Source: Escherichia phage NHEP1. Taken from it: a stretch of 64,000 bases of DNA. Every line of letters starts with the position of its first letter. The stretch's first letter is position 1. The translations under genes were made by a program, and so were the position numbers. The notes under the pieces were generated by a model, which worked only from the letters and a program-made list of their open reading frames with translations, made no database searches and was not told the origin of the DNA. This document shows, piece by piece, positions 5,710 through 46,213 of this stretch. Location: sequence record PQ511146.1. One strand, 5' to 3'.

Positions 5710-5823
5710 ATGGCTAAAAAAGCCTTGAAGAAGGCGTACAAGAAAGAGATTGCGCTTGAGCTTAAGAAAAAACACAAGCGTGAAAAGAAATATCATGAAG
5801 ATGAAGAGGGGGTGCAACAGTGA
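5710..5823 (+). CDS. Small lysine-rich protein (37 aa)
   Basis: GAGGAGG 6 nt upstream of ATG; MAKKALKKAYKKEIALELKKKHKREKKYHEDEEGVQQ; stop overlaps GTG start of next ORF. Confidence 0.4.
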   Translation: MAKKALKKAYKKEIALELKKKHKREKKYHEDEEGVQQ

Positions 5824-7468: not shown

Positions 7469-8518
7469 ATGAATTTAACACCTCGCAGCACCATGGTACA
7501 CGGCATGAAAGAAAAACAGAACGGCTTCGAACCGATGAGTAATAAAATGTTTGGTATGCCTGGTGGTATTATGGAAACATACAGCTACCCAACGCCAGTT
7601 GTTGACCACGTGCTTTATATTGACGATCTTGAGGATTTGCAGGATCATATGTCCCGTTTGCAAACAATTCGTATGGCACAGCCGGAAGAAAGTATCCGTG
7701 TAATTGTTAACAGCCCTGGTGGTTGCGTCCACATTGCCATGGCGTATTTGCAGGCATTCCGCGAGTCTCAGGCAAGCGTTGTTGTACACGCTGAAGGGAT
7801 GTGCTGCTCAGCAGGAACAATCTTATGGCTGGGTTGCAAAGAACGAACTGTGGCTCCGGACACAGAGTTTATGTTCCACTACTATCAAGGTGGCACCTAT
7901 GGCAACGGTGTGAACATGAATACTCAGGTCAACTACTGGAAGAAACGTTTTGAACGCCTGATCGAAAAATACTACGGTGGGGTTCTGACAGAAGATGAGA
8001 TCGCATCCATCACGGCTGGTGGAGAAGTGTGGTTGGATGGAGAAGAGCTGGCAGCTCGAACTGGTGCTATCATTCTGGACGATGAAAACATTCAGCGCAT
8101 TCAGAATGGGCAGAAACCGAAAAAGCTTTTGGCAAAAAGTGATGAAGAAGGTGTGCTAGGCGAAGCAGGCCTGCCAGAGATTCACCAATGCACATCTCTG
8201 GACGAGCTGGTTCACGCTGTTGAGTCTGCAAAAGCAAATGGTATGAAAGGTGATGTTCACACTGTGTTCCTGAATCTGCAGATGGAGAGTGGTGAGACCG
8301 TTAAGATTGCACTGGGTGAGATTACCTCGGAAGATCTGCAGCGATTCTCTGTGGTAGAGCTTCAGGACATTTTGTCCCAATTGAAAACCACCCTGAACGG
8401 AGGTGAAGAAGTTCAGGTTAAAGATAAGACCCGCAAGCGTCTGGTGGACAATATTATTAAAACAGCAAAAGAGCTCAATGAAAAAATCCTGGGCGCAGGA
8501 ATTATCGAAGAAGCTTAA
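7469..8518 (+). CDS. ClpP-family serine peptidase-like protein with C-terminal extension
   Basis: VNSPGG motif, candidate Ser in MCCSAG and His in MFHYYQGG spaced as in ClpP. Confidence 0.65.
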   Translation: MNLTPRSTMVHGMKEKQNGFEPMSNKMFGMPGGIMETYSYPTPVVDHVLYIDDLEDLQDHMSRLQTIRMAQPEESIRVIVNSPGGCVHIAMAYLQAFRESQASVVVHAEGMCCSAGTILWLGCKERTVAPDTEFMFHYYQGGTYGNGVNMNTQVNYWKKRFERLIEKYYGGVLTEDEIASITAGGEVWLDGEELAARTGAIILDDENIQRIQNGQKPKKLLAKSDEEGVLGEAGLPEIHQCTSLDELVHAVESAKANGMKGDVHTVFLNLQMESGETVKIALGEITSEDLQRFSVVELQDILSQLKTTLNGGEEVQVKDKTRKRLVDNIIKTAKELNEKILGAGIIEEA

Positions 8519-13075: not shown

Positions 13076-13170
13076 TTATGGTAGCATCAATATTAACGTT
13101 TATGGGTGGCGTGGCATTCGGATTCATTCTTTGTCTGTTTATAGTTATTATGGCTATGCGAGGCTGAATT

Positions 13171-13455
13171 ATGAAACTGTTCGAGTGGTTTAAAAAGTTT
13201 AAATACCAGGCTGTTGCTGTATCGAAATGGACCGTCCGCTGGGTGGACGATGATGGAACACAAATTCCTGGTGATCAGGATACCGGATACTGGGTTATGA
13301 TGGAGAACGGATTTGGGAAAAGGAAGTTTAAATGTGCTGGCGCTCCTACTCTTTTAAATGTTAGGAATGTACCAGGGTACAGCACTATGGTTGTTTGGGA
13401 GCTATCCGGTGTTCCTCCTGCCAATGTGCAATATCTGCCAAACCCAGAAAAATAA
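13171..13455 (+). CDS. Hypothetical protein
   Basis: Track ORF 94 aa. Confidence 0.5.
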   Translation: MKLFEWFKKFKYQAVAVSKWTVRWVDDDGTQIPGDQDTGYWVMMENGFGKRKFKCAGAPTLLNVRNVPGYSTMVVWELSGVPPANVQYLPNPEK

Positions 13456-19970: not shown

Positions 19971-20547
19971 ATCTGGTGAACGATTCCATACCTTAAGCAG
20001 TTAATATCATTACAGAGCGTTTAAAGGCGGCTTACAAGCAACTCTCTATTTCGAGCGTAGCGAGAACGCACGTCCGTTTTGACCCAAATCACCATACGCT
20101 CGGATTTTAACCAAACCCTCGCGGTGTTTCTGTTGACACATTACCGCTCCTGAAATATGCTTATAGCATCGACACGTTCCAGCCATATGTCGATAAAGTC
20201 TTATTTTTTAAACATGTTGCCGGAATACTCACGGGTGGAACATGACCAACACACATGCATCTACAGAAACATCTGGAGGAGTGAAAGAGGAAAACTTCAA
20301 TTCTGAGGATTCTCTATCTCCGTCCCAGGTGGATCCTGAGGCTGATGACCTAACGTGGGAGGATATCATAGCCATCTGGTTCTCTATTATGCCTGAGCAC
20401 GAAGAGTTCAGAGGTGGGAGACTATAAAGCACCGAGCCCACATAAGTTTATCATGCTAAAGCATGGCCTGAAGAGGCAAACGTGCATAATTCCATCGTAT
20501 TGGAACGTGTAAACCCTGTTCACACTCTCATTTCCAGAGGAGATTCC

Positions 20548-20763
20548 ATGAAAATAGAGATATTTGGTGGGGCTGACAACACTCGTGGCCTGATTTACCT
20601 TGAATTCGATGAATCATACCTGCCAGAGGTGTTAAATATAGATGCTGTTGCGGAAGCCCTTGATGTAGACCCTAAAGATCTCTACTCCCGTGCTGAGATT
20701 GATGGTTGGGAAGAGACTCTGAACATTGATTTCAGTGAAGTAGTAGATGAACCTTTGGACTGA
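20548..20763 (+). CDS. Small acidic hypothetical protein
   Basis: ATG 20548 after GAGGAG; 71 aa. Confidence 0.4.
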   Translation: MKIEIFGGADNTRGLIYLEFDESYLPEVLNIDAVAEALDVDPKDLYSRAEIDGWEETLNIDFSEVVDEPLD

Positions 20764-23270
20764 CACACAAGTCTGCTTTGCAGGTTTAGCTGCTCAGCTA
20801 AGGTTCTGGAGGCACCTATAACATCTTCCAACTAAATTTCCTACCAACACAGTTACTTACCTACCACACATGACTGTTTGCTTGTTTAGTGAGCAGTCAT
20901 CACTTGACATTCTTGCCTATCTTGATAAAATTAAGTTCTTCTCTTTTCTTTTACCGAGTAATTCGGGTTTTCTGTTCTCTTCGGTTTGAAGGGGTATGGA
21001 GATACACCTGAGTGAACAGGGTGAACAACCGAACCTTTAGCTATGGCATTAGCATGGCGAAGCGGACGGGTGACGAAAGAGGGGCCGGAGGACACCAGTC
21101 ACTGCCATATAGTATATGGGTGATAACCTGAAGAGTCTGAATAAGTGTTTAAGTACCAGTCAGAGGAAAAGGTGAATGGTAGCCGAAGGGGGAGGGGGGT
21201 TTCTTATATCTTTAATTTGTATACTTTATATACACTTGTAAACCAATTCAATTAGAATCTGTTTACCACACAAAGGGGATGGAGACAAATATCACCTATT
21301 AAACTTGAATTATTTATAGAAAATACCACAACACCCGTTAAGTCTTTGATTTTACACACAAATCTTACAAATATCCTACCTCCACATTTAACATACTTGT
21401 AACATATTCCATATCCTACCTGCCTGATCAATTTACTCCATCACATTCCCACATTTTCCCTGTCTGTACTACCCCACCCCCGCCGGGAGTCCCGTCATAT
21501 CTGGCTTTCCAGCAAATATCACACCAACAAATATCATCACCTGAAGAGGGTTTCATCCCATAATACCTGCCTTACCTGAAGAGCGCTTCATACACCACGT
21601 AAATTTTTTAATTGACCCCTCCCCGCCGCCAGAGAGGTTGGCTTTTCCCACACAGGCCTGAAGAGTCAGCCAGAAATATCTGAACAGGCAGTTATGTCCC
21701 GATTTTGTGCTTGTCCTACAGGAGTGCTGCCAGGCGGACGGAATGGGAATACTTCTCATTCTTATAATAATTCTCAAATATCGAGGCAGTGAGGCAAATT
21801 AATAGGCCAGGCCGTTCACACAGTGGCACAACATTTGCAATCTATCTTGTGTGGATGAATGAGAATACCTATCATTGTGAGAATGGTTATCATTACGGGC
21901 AATTTAACATAATACCCATTATGCGCACCACTGGCGATACATACAGGGATTGATAACATGGGTTACTGTTTACGCATATAACAATTATATTTCTTACTAT
22001 TTGTGTGGGATATAGTTAGCAACCAATAGATTAGATATTGACCTGCAGACTTCTGACCGTCCAGACGTCTAAACGCCCACACAACAAGGATTATACATAC
22101 ACTCCTGCATGTAACCAGGGCCGCAAAAATGCTACCATACCAGTTTGTAAATTTTTCATGCAGCACTTGACAAAGAGGAGAAAAACTTGTCTGACACAAT
22201 GTGACAATTTTGTCACTTTTGACACTTTTACCTTTGACACAATATGACACAATAACGGCTGTTACTATTCCATATCTCACTGTTTACGCCTGAATAGTTT
22301 ACGCAAAAACTGTTTACACAGAGATGATAAGCCATGCCATTCGTTTGCATGAAAACAATTAACAAGATAACAATTGACAAGCTAACAGCCAACAAGCTGA
22401 CAGTTAATAAGTTAATAAGTTATGACATAATATAAAAGCAGGGCAACTATTAGAAGATCTATAGTTGCCTTGCTTGTTATGTCATGATTAACTAAATACA
22501 AGGCAACTATGATCTGAATAATAGATTGCAGACAAACTATCACGGGGGTGATTGTTACTGCTTTTATATTATGTCGCGACTCCGTCGCGCCATGCCATTC
22601 GTTTGCATAGTTGCCTTATTGTTACAGGTAAAACAATTACATTATTAATTATTTCTTATCTTTCTCTTAGTCATCTAATGATTCCAGTCAGTATAGTAAT
22701 GTACAGTAAACATTAGACGACTAAATATTTCTCTGTGTATAATAACTTATCGTGACAATTTCGAACTGTTTACGAAAAATGTTGACACCTGAGCTGATTT
22801 ATGTTATGCAGTTTACACGAATAATTATTTTATGCAGGTATTGACTATTCCGTTATTCTGTGGTTGGAATAAATACTTTGCAGACTATAGAATGGCGTGC
22901 GTACGTGAATTCTGAGATCTGGCGGCTATAGTTATACTCGATTTTTCGCGTAGAACACGCTTTCGATGCTGTGTAAGTGTATGACTTATAAAGATTTTTA
23001 GTTGTTGACAAGATATTGGAGATGTGCATCAGGTTAAAATTTGTGCAATAGCGGCATTACGTGCACTTTTGGGAGAGAAAACGGGTAAAAATGGCCCTGC
23101 TACCACACAATGAAAGATTATGCAATAGTTATTTTCCATGTATATTTGTACAGTATGTGGGATTGATGGCTAGTCAATTATTCCACTTGCCAGGTAGGGC
23201 CGTTTATGGTAGGAGAAGAGCAGACAAAAAGAAAGGGGCCTTTAAGCCCCTTGATAATTCAGTTAAGAAA
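20764..23270. repeat. ORF-poor, repeat-dense non-coding zone at the convergence of plus and minus transcription blocks
   Basis: No convincing ORF of 100 aa or more; at least five short repeat families seen (see findings). Confidence 0.6.
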
Positions 23271-23690
23271 TTATAATGATTCGTATATTTCAAAAATCCG
23301 ATTTGCCAGGTCGTTACGGTAGCGGAATTTTTCATCGCGCTTGATCATTAAATCCTTATAGCCGTACTCTTTAAGCACTTCATTAACTTTATAGCGGCAT
23401 ACCTGCATATTATCTTGAGCGTCACCAATAAACTTGTTGCTGTGGTGCATTGCTTTAATTTCTTCTTCCAGGACCAGGGCAACTACCCGGACCGGATCAA
23501 GCTGATAGGCGGTAACATCTATGCGGCATTGTAGACGGCTTTTAACGTCTGCCACCGGATATACTGCAACCTCTTCCCCGTCAACATTGACAATAATTAG
23601 TTTACCATCGATTTCGAATCCTTTCGCCGCCGGACCGTGACAAAAAGCGTTATCAAAGCTATATGCCGGATTATCAGATTTAATGTTCAT
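23271..23690 (-). CDS. Hypothetical protein
   Basis: Track ORF 139 aa; ATG with AGAGG RBS. Confidence 0.5.
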   Translation of the reverse strand: MNIKSDNPAYSFDNAFCHGPAAKGFEIDGKLIIVNVDGEEVAVYPVADVKSRLQCRIDVTAYQLDPVRVVALVLEEEIKAMHHSNKFIGDAQDNMQVCRYKVNEVLKEYGYKDLMIKRDEKFRYRNDLANRIFEIYESL

Positions 23691-42136: not shown

Positions 42137-42507
42137 TGATCTGCCTCCTTCTTGTTGAGCCGGAACACTGCAATAATAGCATTTCCAAGATGCAGTGTCA
42201 AATCATTTCCCAGATACCATAACATTCCACGGTCATCTTTAATGAAAGGGTAACAATCCGGTGCCTTCCAGACATTATACACTTTGCCGACCTGAAAGAA
42301 ATCAGGCCCTGTTGGAATTTTAGTACCGGGCCATACTTGGGACACCTGAACGCATTCTACCTGCATAATGACAGGGATAGTCATGGAGGTAAATGTTTTT
42401 GTTGGTTCTACTACCATAAAAGTCTCCTCTCTGTCTAACAACACTTCCGTGTGTTGATAGTTTACATTAGTGACAATCACCCCAGTTACGACCGCACAAG
42501 TATTCAC
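42133..42507 (-). CDS. Small protein, DDxGxxW(F/Y)L paralog family
   Basis: KDDRGMLWYLGNDLTLHLG. Confidence 0.5.
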   Translation of the reverse strand: MNTCAVVTGVIVTNVNYQHTEVLLDREETFMVVEPTKTFTSMTIPVIMQVECVQVSQVWPGTKIPTGPDFFQVGKVYNVWKAPDCYPFIKDDRGMLWYLGNDLTLHLGNAIIAVFRLNKKEADQ

Positions 42508-45500
42508 CTGTGATCTGGAACGGAACGCCCATCATTTTAGAAGCCTGCCAGAAGCAATGCACCACCATTTCGCCCACAGGGCTCCAGATAAGCTCAAGCT
42601 TTCCGTCATCATTCAAGATAGGATCGTATACCGTATTTCCATCCTTGTCAACCACTTCGTTTCCGTCCTCATCTTTGCGTGCCTTTTTGTACTTATGACC
42701 GTCGAACACATGAAGTTTAGCCTCTTGTTGGGCTTTAAATGTTTCCAGCTCTTCAATTGTGTCGAAGGTGTATACGGTTTTATACTTAGGTGTGTCAGGC
42801 ACTTGAAGCTGATATTCGTCATGGTAATAGATAATACGACGAACACCCTCATCATACCATCCACGCTTCACCATCTGGTGGTGCATGAGGATTCCGACCA
42901 AGTCGCACAACGATGCACCGCCATTTTGCTGATATGCATTAAGCAAAGAGTGTTTAGAGCGGGTCCAAATGGCATGCCCGTCAAAAGAGTAGATAAATTT
43001 CTTACCTGTTGCTTCCCAGAATTTCTCCAGATCCTCTTTACGCCCCTTAAGGCCCGGGTTGGCATCCCAGAGAGCATCAATTACTCTCTGTCCAAGTTCT
43101 GGAGAGATATCTAGCATATCTGCAACTTTATCTTTTTGTGCCCCGTACATAACCCCATATGTGACAGGCTTACCATCGTTACGGGAAATCTCCTTGCCTG
43201 CTACAGAAGAGTAAGCTTTGGCGTTATTACAGTTACCGCACACTGCCACTTTACCATTCCTTCTCACAATGATTGCTCCAGAAGGGACGGTAACGCAATA
43301 AACCAAAGAACCGCTCACCTCGACAGACTCTTTAGATAGTGTCAGCAACCCTGCTCTCTGTTTGCTACCAATCGTGATTCTGTGCTGTACGGAACGACCT
43401 TTTTTGTGAATCGCCACCGTATTATTCCGTAAACCACACTGAGTAGCCAGCGCAGACACAACCTCTACAGATTTCTTCCTGCACCCGGCCTGAGAGTAGT
43501 AGGCAACTTTTCCACCTTCGGAAGATACCCACCCGTCCCAGTTAGATAAAGAAGCTATAAACAGGTTTTTAGATTCTTTATCAAGGTCCATCAGGTTGTA
43601 GGTGAAATCCTTATTGCTGTCCAAAAACTCAAATACCCAGGACGGAACGTGGAATTGGAACCTTCTCGCCAGTAAGCCCCCTTTTGTGGTTTTCCCGCTC
43701 TGCTCTACATAACTAAGGCTTAGAGCAGAAAAAGTATCTAAAAGCGTTGCAACTTTTCTGCCCTTCCCGACCTGAATCCTGCACACGATGCTGCCGTCCT
43801 TATTTGTATGCAAGTGCCCATCATCGTGAATAGCAATAAGCAAATTAACCTGGGCAGGAGATAAGGTTGTATTCCCATAAAACTCTGCCGCATGGATAAA
43901 CCTTCTTCCTGAATTAGACCCTTTACCTGCTTTCAGGTCTTTTGCCAAATCTTCAAACAATTTATTGCTTCTGTGATCCACGGTCAGCATCCTGTGTTGA
44001 TCTGTAACCATAAAATCCACACTGCTGTTGTGGAAATGATACATATCCCCACAATAACTACGCTTAACGTAATTTAATGGAGTAACAAGGTTCATCGACG
44101 AGGTGTTGTGATCGTACTGGAACACCTGTGTTCCCGGATCAAGATCTTCAAACCTCACCCACCCTTTCTCCGTGAGAATTTGTGTATCTCCTGAATAACA
44201 GTGTGCATCGCCGTTACTTACAACATCATAATACAGACCGTTGTCAAACTCAAAGGCACCCCAGGCCCCGATGAGCTGCTCTAAGTTGGACCCGTCAATA
44301 CCGATCTCAAAGTATCCTGGAGGAACACCCCACAGACTACGCATCTCTTTACCCATAACCACTTTAGGAGATGGTTTAGGCATGTTTGCACAAATACTAT
44401 GTTTCTGTCTGGAAGTGTTTGTTAATCCAGAACTTTTAGCAGGAAGCTTGTGGTCAATCTTCAAACGTGGATGATTAAGAAGACCAGTATCAACCTTATC
44501 TTCCTTGATTGGATCAAGGACCGATCTGCGGTTTCGCAATGATAACCACAAAACGATATCTTTAGCCATCTCTCCGTTCAATTTTTCAAGATTCGGGCAC
44601 AGGTGTCCAAACGTATCTTTCAGTTGCGGAGAAGTAATAAGCGCTCTGGCTTTTCTACGTATCTTCCCAAACACTTCCTTTTTAATCCTTTCTGAGTTAG
44701 GGAAGCTTCGGAACTTATGCACAGTTGTCTGGAACTTGGCATCAGTTTTGTTCCAGAAGTTGATAATTAGATCACAATACTCTGACTCCAAAAGCTCGTC
44801 CATATATGCATATACTCGTGCATCAACATCTGCATCAGGTAAAGCTTTCTTCTTGCTGTCTTTAGTTACATCTTTAGTTCTCCACATTGTTGGGAGCCAA
44901 CCAGCACTGATCAGGTATCGCTTGATGTCGTCCTGATTGCTGATTTTCATAGGTATCTTGCAGTCAGGCATTCGCTTCTGCTGTAGGTCACTTATCGCCT
45001 GATCCATCAGCTCTTTAGGTAAAGGGTGTGGTGTAGAAGTTCCTTTGATATACCCCCTCAAGAAATCAGCCATCTTATCGGGGTCTTTACAGCCCATCTC
45101 TTCACACCATTTTATCCCCATCTTACTTACATCCCCTGTGGAGGTAAATGCTCGCTTAGGAGGAGCTTTGAACTCTAAAGCACTCATGTCCACAGGGTAG
45201 CCAAGCTTGTCTTTTAACCATTTCCAACCATTATTGGAGATTGTCCCATCTTGGTTAAACGGCTTTTCAGGGAACTTAGGCCGCTGAGACATTGATAACT
45301 CTTTTAAAGGAAGTTGTGGTTCAACACGATCAGCGATCTCTTTCATCCACGCATCGCAACGGTCACGTAAAGCAATAGCCCCATCTATGTCGAAATACAC
45401 CCCCTGTCGAGCCTGCAGCTCCATCAGGAAGTGCTGTAACATGCCTCGGCGTAATGCGTTCTTCCAGGTGATCTTCTTGAAGCCTTTCGGCTTCTCTTTG

Positions 45501-46213
45501 GCAGGATCGTACATAAAGTTCTGCATGTCAGATTTGCCGTAGAATACACCTTTTGATTCCGCTACCAACTCCTTCCAGAGCAACTCCTGGATGATAACGT
45601 CCTCGAACACACGATCCACATACTTCCACAGTGGAAGCTCACGCCAGTCATCGATTTGAACTTTCTGGTTACCAAGGGCATAGCCCCATGCCATAAGGCC
45701 ATGAGGCCCAACAGGCTGCATTTTCTTGGTAACTGGATTGAATACTGCGTCCGGACAACCTTTTGGCAAAGGGCGGTCAGGCCACAAGATTCGGCTCATC
45801 GCTAACGTATCAAACAGATTAACCGGGTGGTCGTTGATAGTCCCCATGCATTTAGGATCACGGAACATATCAAAATGAATACCGGATAATCTTTCCATCA
45901 GCATAAAGTCGTAACTGTAGCAGTTATGACAGTTCAAAGCCGTAGGTGACCAGTCTGAATTGCCTGTAAGCCAACCTTCCAACTCTGAAAAATCTGCTAT
46001 GCGAGCCTCAAAATCTGTATAAAGGGTCTTCTTTGCCAGAATGAAGTTCTTAGCTTTCTCCACATCCTCTTCAGAGTAGTGTGTGCGGTCATTTAGAGGA
46101 AGGAACAGCATAAAACGGTTCTTATTCAGCTCTTTAAACAAACCGCAGTGATAATAAAGATCTGGGTCTTCCAGCAGGCCAGAGGCCTCAAAATCGAACG
46201 ACCACATGCTCAT
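42467..46213 (-). CDS. DNA polymerase, family A (T7 gp5-like), intein-containing
   Basis: N-terminal exonuclease motif FDFEASGL and YHCG; motif A-like GIDGSNLEQ...FDNG; motif B-like NAK...YGVMYGA; motif C-like YYHDEYQ; AAGGAG RBS. Confidence 0.85.
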   Translation of the reverse strand: MSMWSFDFEASGLLEDPDLYYHCGLFKELNKNRFMLFLPLNDRTHYSEEDVEKAKNFILAKKTLYTDFEARIADFSELEGWLTGNSDWSPTALNCHNCYSYDFMLMERLSGIHFDMFRDPKCMGTINDHPVNLFDTLAMSRILWPDRPLPKGCPDAVFNPVTKKMQPVGPHGLMAWGYALGNQKVQIDDWRELPLWKYVDRVFEDVIIQELLWKELVAESKGVFYGKSDMQNFMYDPAKEKPKGFKKITWKNALRRGMLQHFLMELQARQGVYFDIDGAIALRDRCDAWMKEIADRVEPQLPLKELSMSQRPKFPEKPFNQDGTISNNGWKWLKDKLGYPVDMSALEFKAPPKRAFTSTGDVSKMGIKWCEEMGCKDPDKMADFLRGYIKGTSTPHPLPKELMDQAISDLQQKRMPDCKIPMKISNQDDIKRYLISAGWLPTMWRTKDVTKDSKKKALPDADVDARVYAYMDELLESEYCDLIINFWNKTDAKFQTTVHKFRSFPNSERIKKEVFGKIRRKARALITSPQLKDTFGHLCPNLEKLNGEMAKDIVLWLSLRNRRSVLDPIKEDKVDTGLLNHPRLKIDHKLPAKSSGLTNTSRQKHSICANMPKPSPKVVMGKEMRSLWGVPPGYFEIGIDGSNLEQLIGAWGAFEFDNGLYYDVVSNGDAHCYSGDTQILTEKGWVRFEDLDPGTQVFQYDHNTSSMNLVTPLNYVKRSYCGDMYHFHNSSVDFMVTDQHRMLTVDHRSNKLFEDLAKDLKAGKGSNSGRRFIHAAEFYGNTTLSPAQVNLLIAIHDDGHLHTNKDGSIVCRIQVGKGRKVATLLDTFSALSLSYVEQSGKTTKGGLLARRFQFHVPSWVFEFLDSNKDFTYNLMDLDKESKNLFIASLSNWDGWVSSEGGKVAYYSQAGCRKKSVEVVSALATQCGLRNNTVAIHKKGRSVQHRITIGSKQRAGLLTLSKESVEVSGSLVYCVTVPSGAIIVRRNGKVAVCGNCNNAKAYSSVAGKEISRNDGKPVTYGVMYGAQKDKVADMLDISPELGQRVIDALWDANPGLKGRKEDLEKFWEATGKKFIYSFDGHAIWTRSKHSLLNAYQQNGGASLCDLVGILMHHQMVKRGWYDEGVRRIIYYHDEYQLQVPDTPKYKTVYTFDTIEELETFKAQQEAKLHVFDGHKYKKARKDEDGNEVVDKDGNTVYDPILNDDGKLELIWSPVGEMVVHCFWQASKMMGVPFQITGEYLCGRNWGDCH
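43232..44200 (-). mobile_element. Intein (about 323 aa) with LAGLIDADG-like endonuclease motifs inside the polymerase gene
   Basis: Begins CYSGDTQIL right after GDAH; T..H block; LIAIHDDGHL and FIASLSNWDGW motifs; ends ...VAVCGN before +1 Cys; extein boundaries by alignment-by-eye. Confidence 0.75.

Follow-up and report, generated by a model that had tools for sequence, protein, structure and literature searches.

The 64-kb stretch of DNA analyzed here (from Escherichia phage NHEP1, record PQ511146.1, called the window below) represents a Vequintavirus, or rV5-like, genome; rV5-like phages are myophages of E. coli. Two operons in the window converge on a 2.5-kb gap at 20764-23270. The final plus-strand gene has its 3' end at 20763, the final minus-strand gene occupies 23271-23690, and a hairpin at 23233-23252 on the minus strand forms the intrinsic terminator of the leftward operon (it is annotated as a terminator in Murica, Alma, and HdK5). 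A first-pass annotation, made without database searches, had described the gap as an open reading frame (ORF)-poor, repeat-rich hub at the point where transcription converges, and had proposed a replication origin, a packaging or terminal-repeat region, or a non-coding RNA locus as its function, with no preference among the three. That description is correct, and an equivalent layout is found in other genera (phages KPP-1 and BME3). The gene-free stretch is most probably the chromosome-terminus region of a genome packaged with short direct terminal repeats (DTRs), a reading built on sequence comparison, and it also holds a candidate structured RNA.

A search with 20400-23400 against phage records matched 121 of them, almost all Vequintavirus, with 97 full-length matches, mostly at 90-95% identity. 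The four longest ORFs inside the gap (69-105 aa) keep an intact frame in just 2-7 of 21 aligned sequences, the window included, versus 20 of 21 and 17 of 17 for the two genes flanking it; no ORF in the gap is conserved. Annotations of relatives mostly leave the gap empty or place tiny, inconsistent "hypothetical" calls in it, and no tRNA or tmRNA genes were found. The rV5 genome paper of 2013 (PMC3606486) drew a grey "non-coding" box here without an assigned function, and placed the convergence of genes 163 and 164, together with a skew switch, at 104.4-105.5 kb.

A probable direct terminal repeat

The first 459 bp of the HdK5 record are identical to its last 459 bp, and this segment maps to 21733-22191 of the window. 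A terminal redundancy of 458 bp was reported for EdH4 and HdK5 by Korf et al. (2019). With the DTR segment alone as the query, both record ends carry it in EdH4, YN3, and HdK5; the same sequence thus stands at both ends in relatives, and the window's repeat is assigned by homology to them. In a sensitive search, five records begin at one and the same internal position, window 21733, and the records that open at this left boundary comprise HdK5, EdH4, YN3, bov10K2.2, bov22_2.2, and ECP2309. The ECP2303 record ends at the right boundary and begins just past it, while Pr121LW and Aya, which run the other way, open at that same boundary. In all, at least nine records of independent origin share boundaries homologous to 21733 and 22191, as expected of fixed, unique ends, and the sequence contexts of both boundaries are kept in KPP-1 (see below). 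The packaging or terminal-repeat function offered as one candidate by the first-pass annotation is supported by this mapping.

Sequence conservation describes the same segment. Window 21733-22191 is 94-98% identical to the relatives' DTR copies, and an alignment of the window with 20 relatives gives an identity of 0.91-0.98 across it, making it a conserved island amid indel-rich, hypervariable DNA. The island opens 12 nt to the left of the boundary (GGAGTGCTGCCA/GGCGGAC, a slash marking the boundary) and closes about 5 nt beyond the right boundary (CTTGTC/TGACA). The invariant 12 nt, GGAGTGCTGCCA at 21721-21732 on the plus strand, lie immediately outside the left boundary and are a candidate for the left cleavage-site context. 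Inside the DTR are a copy of CAAATATC at 21775-21782, 42 nt in from the left end, and two palindromic sites resembling Fur boxes (GAKAAT-N3-TATCATT) at 21861-21876 and 21879-21894; its right end reads TTGACAAAGAGGAG...CTTGTC.

A "duplicated DTR" suggested by phage I29 (ON286975, our L020; locus 1327-2466) was rejected. The I29 record has an exact duplication of 546 bp joined through a 120-nt palindrome; its position does not match that of the DTR, and it probably arose in assembly.

Comparison with other genera

Klebsiella phage KPP-1 (Mydovirus, of the same subfamily) has a DTR of 514 bp at 116,316-116,829, established by doubled (2x) read coverage and by PhageTerm, which types it as T7-like (PMC9862379). 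In the KPP-1 record this DTR also falls in an ORF-poor gap between converging operons of small genes. The left boundary of KPP-1, GCGGTGCTA/GACGGACAG, closely matches that of the window, GGAGTGCTGCCA/GGCGGACGG; the read-mapped KPP-1 boundary reads GCGGTGCTA/GACGGAC, and the equivalent in locus L006 reads GGAGTGCTTA/ACGCG. The right boundaries are likewise a close match, with CTTGACAAGGAGAGAGAATTGTGTT/ in KPP-1 and CTTGACAAAGAGGAGAAAAACTTGTC/ in the window, and in both phages a (C/A)AAATATC motif is found exactly 42 nt in from the left end of the DTR. Phage BME3 (Justusliebigvirus) has a DTR of 342 bp (PMC12210895). Its record begins at the DTR, with CAAATATC at +44; tandem CAACAAATAGGG repeats begin at the right DTR boundary, and about 1.1 kb of non-coding DNA precedes leftward genes.

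The Fur-box-like palindrome occurs twice in the DTR (21861 and 21879) and only once more in the 64 kb (33891). It recurs in the terminus regions of BME3, phAPEC8/L006, and KPP-1; copies outside the window include those at positions 56 and 251 of locus L043 and at positions 5742 and 6677 of locus L041. Host Fur or a phage protein would be candidate factors for it.

Judged by these comparisons, a common layout is kept across at least two subfamilies. From the convergent genes it runs through the left arm to a putative cut site and the DTR, then to a second putative cut site, the short repeats, a perfect inverted repeat, and finally the leftward genes. A diverged relative, locus L004 (~68% identical), carries three perfect DnaA boxes (TTATCCACA) in direct orientation at ~7840-7885 on its minus strand, inside its putative DTR; these boxes are absent from the window.

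The left arm and its motifs

The first-pass annotation listed several motif families, and these hold up with one correction. Copies of CCTGAAGAG lie at 20467, 21127, 21540, 21575, and 21657, as claimed, all on the plus strand; the 64-kb window has seven in total against 0.53 expected, a count reached in 0 of 100 shuffles. The copy at 20467 had been counted as part of 20764-23270, and it lies outside: this oriented outlier (20467-20475) sits in the intergenic gap upstream of the final plus-strand gene, and an equivalent copy is kept in L004. The two reported copies of ATATCCTACCT were recovered (21371 and 21411, with 0.04 expected), as were the C-rich tracts, at 21472-21484 and 21616-21630. Five of the seven CTGTTTAC copies in the window, for which 2.15 are expected, fall inside the region. 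Repeat analysis also confirmed the direct repeats, the iteron-like arrays, and the palindromes (an 18-nt perfect inverted repeat).

Much of this material belongs to the left arm (21206-21720, plus strand), an AT-rich stretch that contains both ATATCCTACCT copies, the C-rich tracts, oriented copies of CAAATATC, and the CCTGAAGAG copies at 21540, 21575, and 21657. Its final ~40 nt are indel-variable. A composite block, ACAAATATC..ACAAATATCAT..CCTGAAGAGGG, is kept in L004 at ~68% overall identity, where the number, order, and orientation of the CAAATATC and CCTGAAGAG copies and the two C-rich tracts are all preserved.

The right arm

Hypervariable short tandem repeats (22192-22330, plus strand) begin exactly at the right DTR boundary. 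Variation is absent as far as ...AAAAACTTGTC, and arrays of TGACA(C/T)AAT type with a period of ~10 nt follow it (TGACAC-type repeats at 22192-22250); a second array, of (C)TGTTTAC(R) type, has a period of ~15 nt (CTGTTTAC-type repeats at about 22279-22320). Copy number varies from 2 to ~11 among phages that are otherwise ~90% identical, and identity across the zone is 0.35-0.73, with many indels. BME3 and L004 have other repeat sequences at this position. In L004, for example, AGGCATAC repeats take the equivalent place, after a homologous TTGACAAAAAGAG box. In V18 (NC_041937, our L015; equivalent of ~22250-22400), a run of 12 A replaces part of the repeat zone and the first direct repeat of the module described next, which is possibly an assembly gap.

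The next element (22331-22608) is a module with a direct repeat-inverted repeat-direct repeat (DR-IR-DR) architecture. Between exact 20-nt direct repeats at 22331-22350 and 22589-22608 lie an AACAAG-type array and a perfect inverted repeat of 18 nt (22424-22441 / 22558-22575); the module also has four sites of the form GGCAACTAT/ATAGTTGCC (22442, 22461, 22502, and 22607). The module is present in 19 of 20 relatives. In the remaining one, FV3 (JQ031132, our L016; equivalent of 22351-22608), a single 20-nt direct repeat is left and the palindrome module is precisely absent, which by its sequence is a clean deletion between direct repeats in a viable isolate. Since FV3 is an isolated, viable phage without the module, the module is dispensable in culture. 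The DR-IR-DR architecture is the same in L004, where the sequences of the repeats, arms, and sites differ, those of the arms and sites covarying, and perfect inverted repeats stand at a similar distance from the end in KPP-1 (21 nt) and BME3 (15 nt). The arms show perfect Watson-Crick complementarity in all four lineages. Such perfect arms, with multi-copy sites that change in concert, point to a role at the level of DNA or protein binding rather than RNA.

From 22609 to 23232 the right arm is AT-rich, with identity of 0.88-0.97 and promoter-like sites on both strands; its blocks at 22926-22937 and 22986-23031 are kept in L004.

A candidate structured RNA

At the other side of the gap, the segment ~20863-21205 shows the highest conservation in the whole 3.2 kb, with identity of 0.97-1.00 (flanking genes, ~0.8-0.98). 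A plus-strand hairpin between the final plus-strand gene and the promoter (ATGACTG-N17-CAGTCAT, 20870-20900) is invariant across relatives. A near-consensus sigma-70 promoter follows at 20904-20931 on the plus strand (TTGACA-N16-TAAAAT with an upstream TG forming an extended -10; 11 of 12 matches), the best of the region in a promoter scan. Even where the spacer changes, both hexamers persist; in the diverged clade the corresponding position is taken by TTGCAA-N17-TATAAT. Downstream lies an ultra-conserved element of ~265 nt (20938-21205, plus strand) that includes the CCTGAAGAG copy at 21127. We regard it as a candidate new structured non-coding RNA (ncRNA); the non-coding RNA locus proposed earlier thus gains comparative support, from a promoter-driven, ultra-conserved element with covariation that the first-pass annotation had not picked out.

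Scans with a conserved 26-nt pattern gave 16 loci (5 viral and 11 stretches of metagenome), which split into clade A (Vequintavirus) and clade B (~68% identical). A 27-nt insert with an internal CCTGAAGAG copy is present or absent within clade B, being absent in four members. In L004, a gene for a 256-aa HNH_3 endonuclease (L004:8716-9486, plus strand of L004) lies between the RNA element and the zone of CCTGAAGAG and C-rich tracts. It looks like a homing-type insertion into the terminus region, and its position between the RNA element and the motif array means that the two modules are separable.

A small protein encoded in the element was considered and rejected. The clades share no conserved reading frame: clade B lacks the ATG-initiated ORFs of clade A, the clades differ by indels of 1, 1, 5, and 1 nt, and conservation of a 54-aa frame on the minus strand is lower at the protein level than at the DNA level. 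A host origin or host mimicry was likewise rejected: a search of 5,426 E. coli genomes turned up nothing similar, and the core motif did not occur in any of 185,579 bacterial and archaeal genomes. No Rfam family matches the window at gathering score, and a permissive scan of the region gives only chance-level hairpin hits (E >= 0.65). A covariance model (R1) matches the window at 20935-21211 and finds no homolog in the phAPEC8, L006, KPP-1, BME3, and phiTE loci. One other match in the window (13121-13265, plus strand) is weak (13.7 bits, E ~0.006) and probably due to chance; it contains GUUUAAAUACCAG, which resembles the invariant loop of the RNA. A link to the pseudo-ToxI ncRNA of phiTE was rejected, the phiTE locus lying in a co-directional tRNA region rather than at an equivalent junction.

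For the fold, RNAalifold was given 25 distinct sequences. It predicts 43 pairs, nine of them with compensatory changes; 99.1% of cells are paired in the predicted structure versus 51-62% when partners are slid, and double-change pairs number nine versus 0-2 in the slid controls. The predicted terminal stem P1 joins the CU-rich 5' end (20938-20949) to a 3' G5AG6 tract (21188-21199), largely through G.U and G-C pairs. A hairpin at 20954-20966 reads CCGA-GUAAU-UCGG in clade A and CCAGAA-UACGC-UUCUGG in clade B, a 12-bp hairpin (20969-20981/20990-21002) has four compensatory pairs, and a long-range helix (21042-21048/21103-21109, UAUGGCA/UGCCAUA) has a GC-to-CG swap. Helix P5 (21136-21140/21160-21164) closes the invariant loop GTTTAAGTACCAG (21147-21159; as RNA, GUUUAAGUACCAG). 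P5 reads UCUGA/UCAGA in clade A and CAAUAGCG/CGCUGUUG in clade B, and among clade-B sequences two of its pairs have changed independently from GC to AU, with a G.U intermediate; 64 of 64 cells are paired. Because G.U pairs are possible in plus-strand RNA alone, they argue against a DNA cruciform and against a minus-strand transcript.

Several observations qualify the case for a structured RNA. The predicted fold is not significantly more stable than that of shuffled sequence (z = -1.34), so the structure draws its support from the comparative evidence only, and most of the covariation comes from the one split between the two main clades. Conservation stops at the G tract, where a U-rich tail follows in clade A and not in clade B; no clear intrinsic terminator is conserved. 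A literature search found no Vequintavirus transcriptome study of the locus.

Proposed mechanism and alternative explanations

If the assignment is right, 21733-22191 would occur once per junction between genome units in head-to-tail concatemers, and the virion would carry a copy at both ends. By analogy with T7-type phages, terminase would cut at or near the boundaries, GGAGTGCTGCCA/GGCGGAC on the left and CTTGTC/TGACAC on the right, and the DTR would be duplicated by DNA synthesis, as in T7-type maturation. The flanking non-coding DNA would supply cis-acting signals. On the left these may be the oriented CCTGAAGAG and CAAATATC array and the C-rich tracts; on the right, the short repeats at the boundary could be sites for a sequence-specific protein, most plausibly, we infer, the small terminase subunit or a replication protein. 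Lineage-specific repeat sequences fit a co-evolving DNA-binding protein. The dispensable palindrome module would lie farther right. About 800 bp to the left of the DTR, the strong host-type promoter would fire toward it to produce the ~265-nt structured RNA. We consider it unlikely, if worth stating, that this RNA, 530 nt from the DTR, represents a new class of terminus-associated phage RNA that acts in genome maturation, as a packaging cofactor like the phi29 packaging RNA (pRNA) or as a primer or R-loop RNA from which replication would start at the end of the chromosome, rather than an ordinary regulatory small RNA.

Some points weigh against placing the terminus here. The ends of this phage are assigned by homology, at 94-98% identity, and PhageTerm or restriction data have led some authors to describe Vequintavirus genomes as circularly permuted or packaged by the headful mechanism. 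The repeats adjacent to the DTR are highly variable among viable relatives, and FV3 lacks the palindrome module, so not all parts of the right arm can be essential packaging signals.

The published descriptions of permuted ends suggest a different reading, in which DNA is packaged by the headful mechanism from a pac site and the DTR of some records is an artefact of assembly or of PhageTerm. We judge this very unlikely. It is true that rV5 was described as circularly permuted, that PhageTerm classed the bov phages and BpE1AUH as permuted or headful, and that the related phiTE is permuted by Bal31 mapping. However, independent laboratories arrived at exactly the same two boundaries, with which the headful and permuted descriptions are hard to reconcile, and the bov records were later re-opened at the start of the DTR. 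Sequence conservation shifts sharply at exactly both boundaries, and the boundary contexts and motif offsets persist in KPP-1, where the doubled coverage was measured. The same preservation of boundary contexts across genera bears on the idea that the region serves chiefly for the insertion of accessory or mobile DNA and for recombination at a transcription-free spot, its motifs being remnants with no packaging role. The HNH endonuclease gene inserted in L004, the hypervariable arrays, an indel polymorphism bounded by direct repeats, and the 27-nt CCTGAAGAG-bearing insert that comes and goes within clade B are what such a spot would look like. Yet most of the region is conserved at least as well as coding DNA, and the number, order, and orientation of its motifs persist at ~68% identity, which makes this account highly improbable.

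A replication origin, the remaining function proposed in the first-pass annotation, would be compatible with a terminus. The arrays and the palindrome might bind an initiator, or the G-tract RNA might prime synthesis through an R-loop (compare ColE1, T4 origins, and mitochondrial CSB II). We hold this possible, as an alternative or an additional function, and only tentatively. Short-repeat arrays with perfect inverted repeats are present, including clustered iterons (of TGACAC, CTGTTTAC, and AACAAG types), although their number and sequence vary among close relatives and FV3 does without the palindrome module. The strong promoter is followed by the conserved G5AG6 tract and then AT-rich DNA, but the G tract is predicted to be paired with the 5' end of the RNA and not free. 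Three perfect DnaA boxes mark the equivalent segment of L004, whereas the window has no DnaA-box cluster, the region holding two single-mismatch boxes only. The sign of the GC skew changes in the region, but this switch coincides with the change in gene orientation, as the rV5 authors already remarked (PMC3606486). Finally, the replisome encoded in the window is T7-like, with a polymerase of family A and a DnaB/gp4-like helicase, and T7 packaging plasmids require an origin adjoining the junction. With or without an origin, a chromosome terminus with short DTRs is the reading we prefer.

Implications

The 458-bp redundancy (2019) and the "non-coding" box (2013) are already published for the genus, so the terminus call is not in itself a discovery. 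We found no earlier account of where exactly the terminus lies and how it is built, of the cut-site contexts and motif offset shared across genera, of the repeats beginning at the right boundary, of the DR-IR-DR module and its dispensability, or of the ultra-conserved structured RNA candidate, and these appear to be new.

Phages of the rV5 type rank among the E. coli phages isolated most often, and they are potential agents of therapy and biocontrol. Their deposited genomes are mostly opened at arbitrary positions, and several papers say they are circularly permuted; placing the ends in the "non-coding" box would give these genomes a consistent orientation. Candidate cut sites and binding-site arrays are now explicit for packaging studies and for genome rebooting or engineering, and the region 20764-23270 serves as a warning against treating such DNA as dispensable spacer. 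The candidate RNA, conserved above the level of neighboring proteins and matching no described family, would if expressed be a new phage ncRNA, whose position suggests a link to the chromosome ends.

Additional observations

The minus-strand gene next to the terminus (23271-23690) encodes a 139-aa protein with no Pfam domain. It is ~89% identical in Phapecoctavirus, of a different subfamily, where it often lies no more than 1-2 kb from record ends; such conservation is unusual for a small early-region gene. A 1248-aa ORF (42467-46213, minus strand) has a weak family A DNA polymerase match near its C-terminus only. The rV5 polymerase is reported as 775 aa, and the window ORF may be a fused, interrupted, or different gene. 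Among 8 window ORFs scanned, of the 14 with at least 330 aa, no terminase domain was detected. Nineteen records (MG0656xx) bear the name "Campylobacter phage"; across the region they share ~90% identity with E. coli vequintaviruses. Their host labels look doubtful, and contamination or mislabelling is likely.

Comparison with known systems

The candidate RNA invites comparison with the pRNA of phi29, a structured non-coding RNA whose promoter-driven gene adjoins a genome end; here the counterpart is a candidate predicted from sequence. Its G5AG6 tract followed by T-rich DNA also resembles the primer-forming G-run of the ColE1, T4, and CSB II primer RNAs. It shows no sequence or Rfam similarity to any of these, its G tract is predicted to be paired within the RNA, and the element is absent from the sister genera examined.

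In phage lambda, cos comprises cosQ-cosN-cosB; repeated terminase-binding sites and a site for a host bending protein flank its cut site. The terminus described here is similar in that a short-repeat array adjoins the putative cut site, on the side retained with the left end after packaging, in that oriented motifs lie across the cut site from this array, and in that palindromic sites resembling a host-factor site are nearby. The repeats abutting the right cut site resemble the terminase-binding repeats of cosB. It differs in having direct repeats rather than 12-nt cohesive ends, in the varying copy number of the array among viable relatives, and in that terminase binding is putative.

The terminal repeat of T5 contains a repeat- and palindrome-rich non-coding zone that is the proposed injection-stop region. 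The likeness to T5 lies in the dense direct and inverted repeats (with DnaA boxes in L004) in non-coding DNA beside a terminal repeat, although we know of no two-step DNA entry in rV5-like phages. The T5 repeat differs in spanning ~10 kb and carrying genes; lengths of 10-11 kb are mentioned for T5-like repeats by Korf et al. (2019).

For a plasmid to be packaged in T7, a packaging signal and the terminal repeat together with an origin are enough; the packaging signal and the terminal repeat also act in concert with transcription into the concatemer junction. Apart from lacking any sequence similarity to the T7/T3 junction, the present system is unlike it in belonging to a 135-kb myovirus with promoters for host RNA polymerase and with genes converging from both sides; its repeat, moreover, is 459 bp, against 160 bp in T7. 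It is like the T7/T3 junction in having a short, exact terminal repeat in a non-coding zone with cis signals on both sides, in having a strong promoter (phiOR in T7/T3) a few hundred bp upstream of the right-end repeat and firing into the junction, and in its T7-type replisome, with KPP-1, of the same subfamily, typed as T7-like by PhageTerm.

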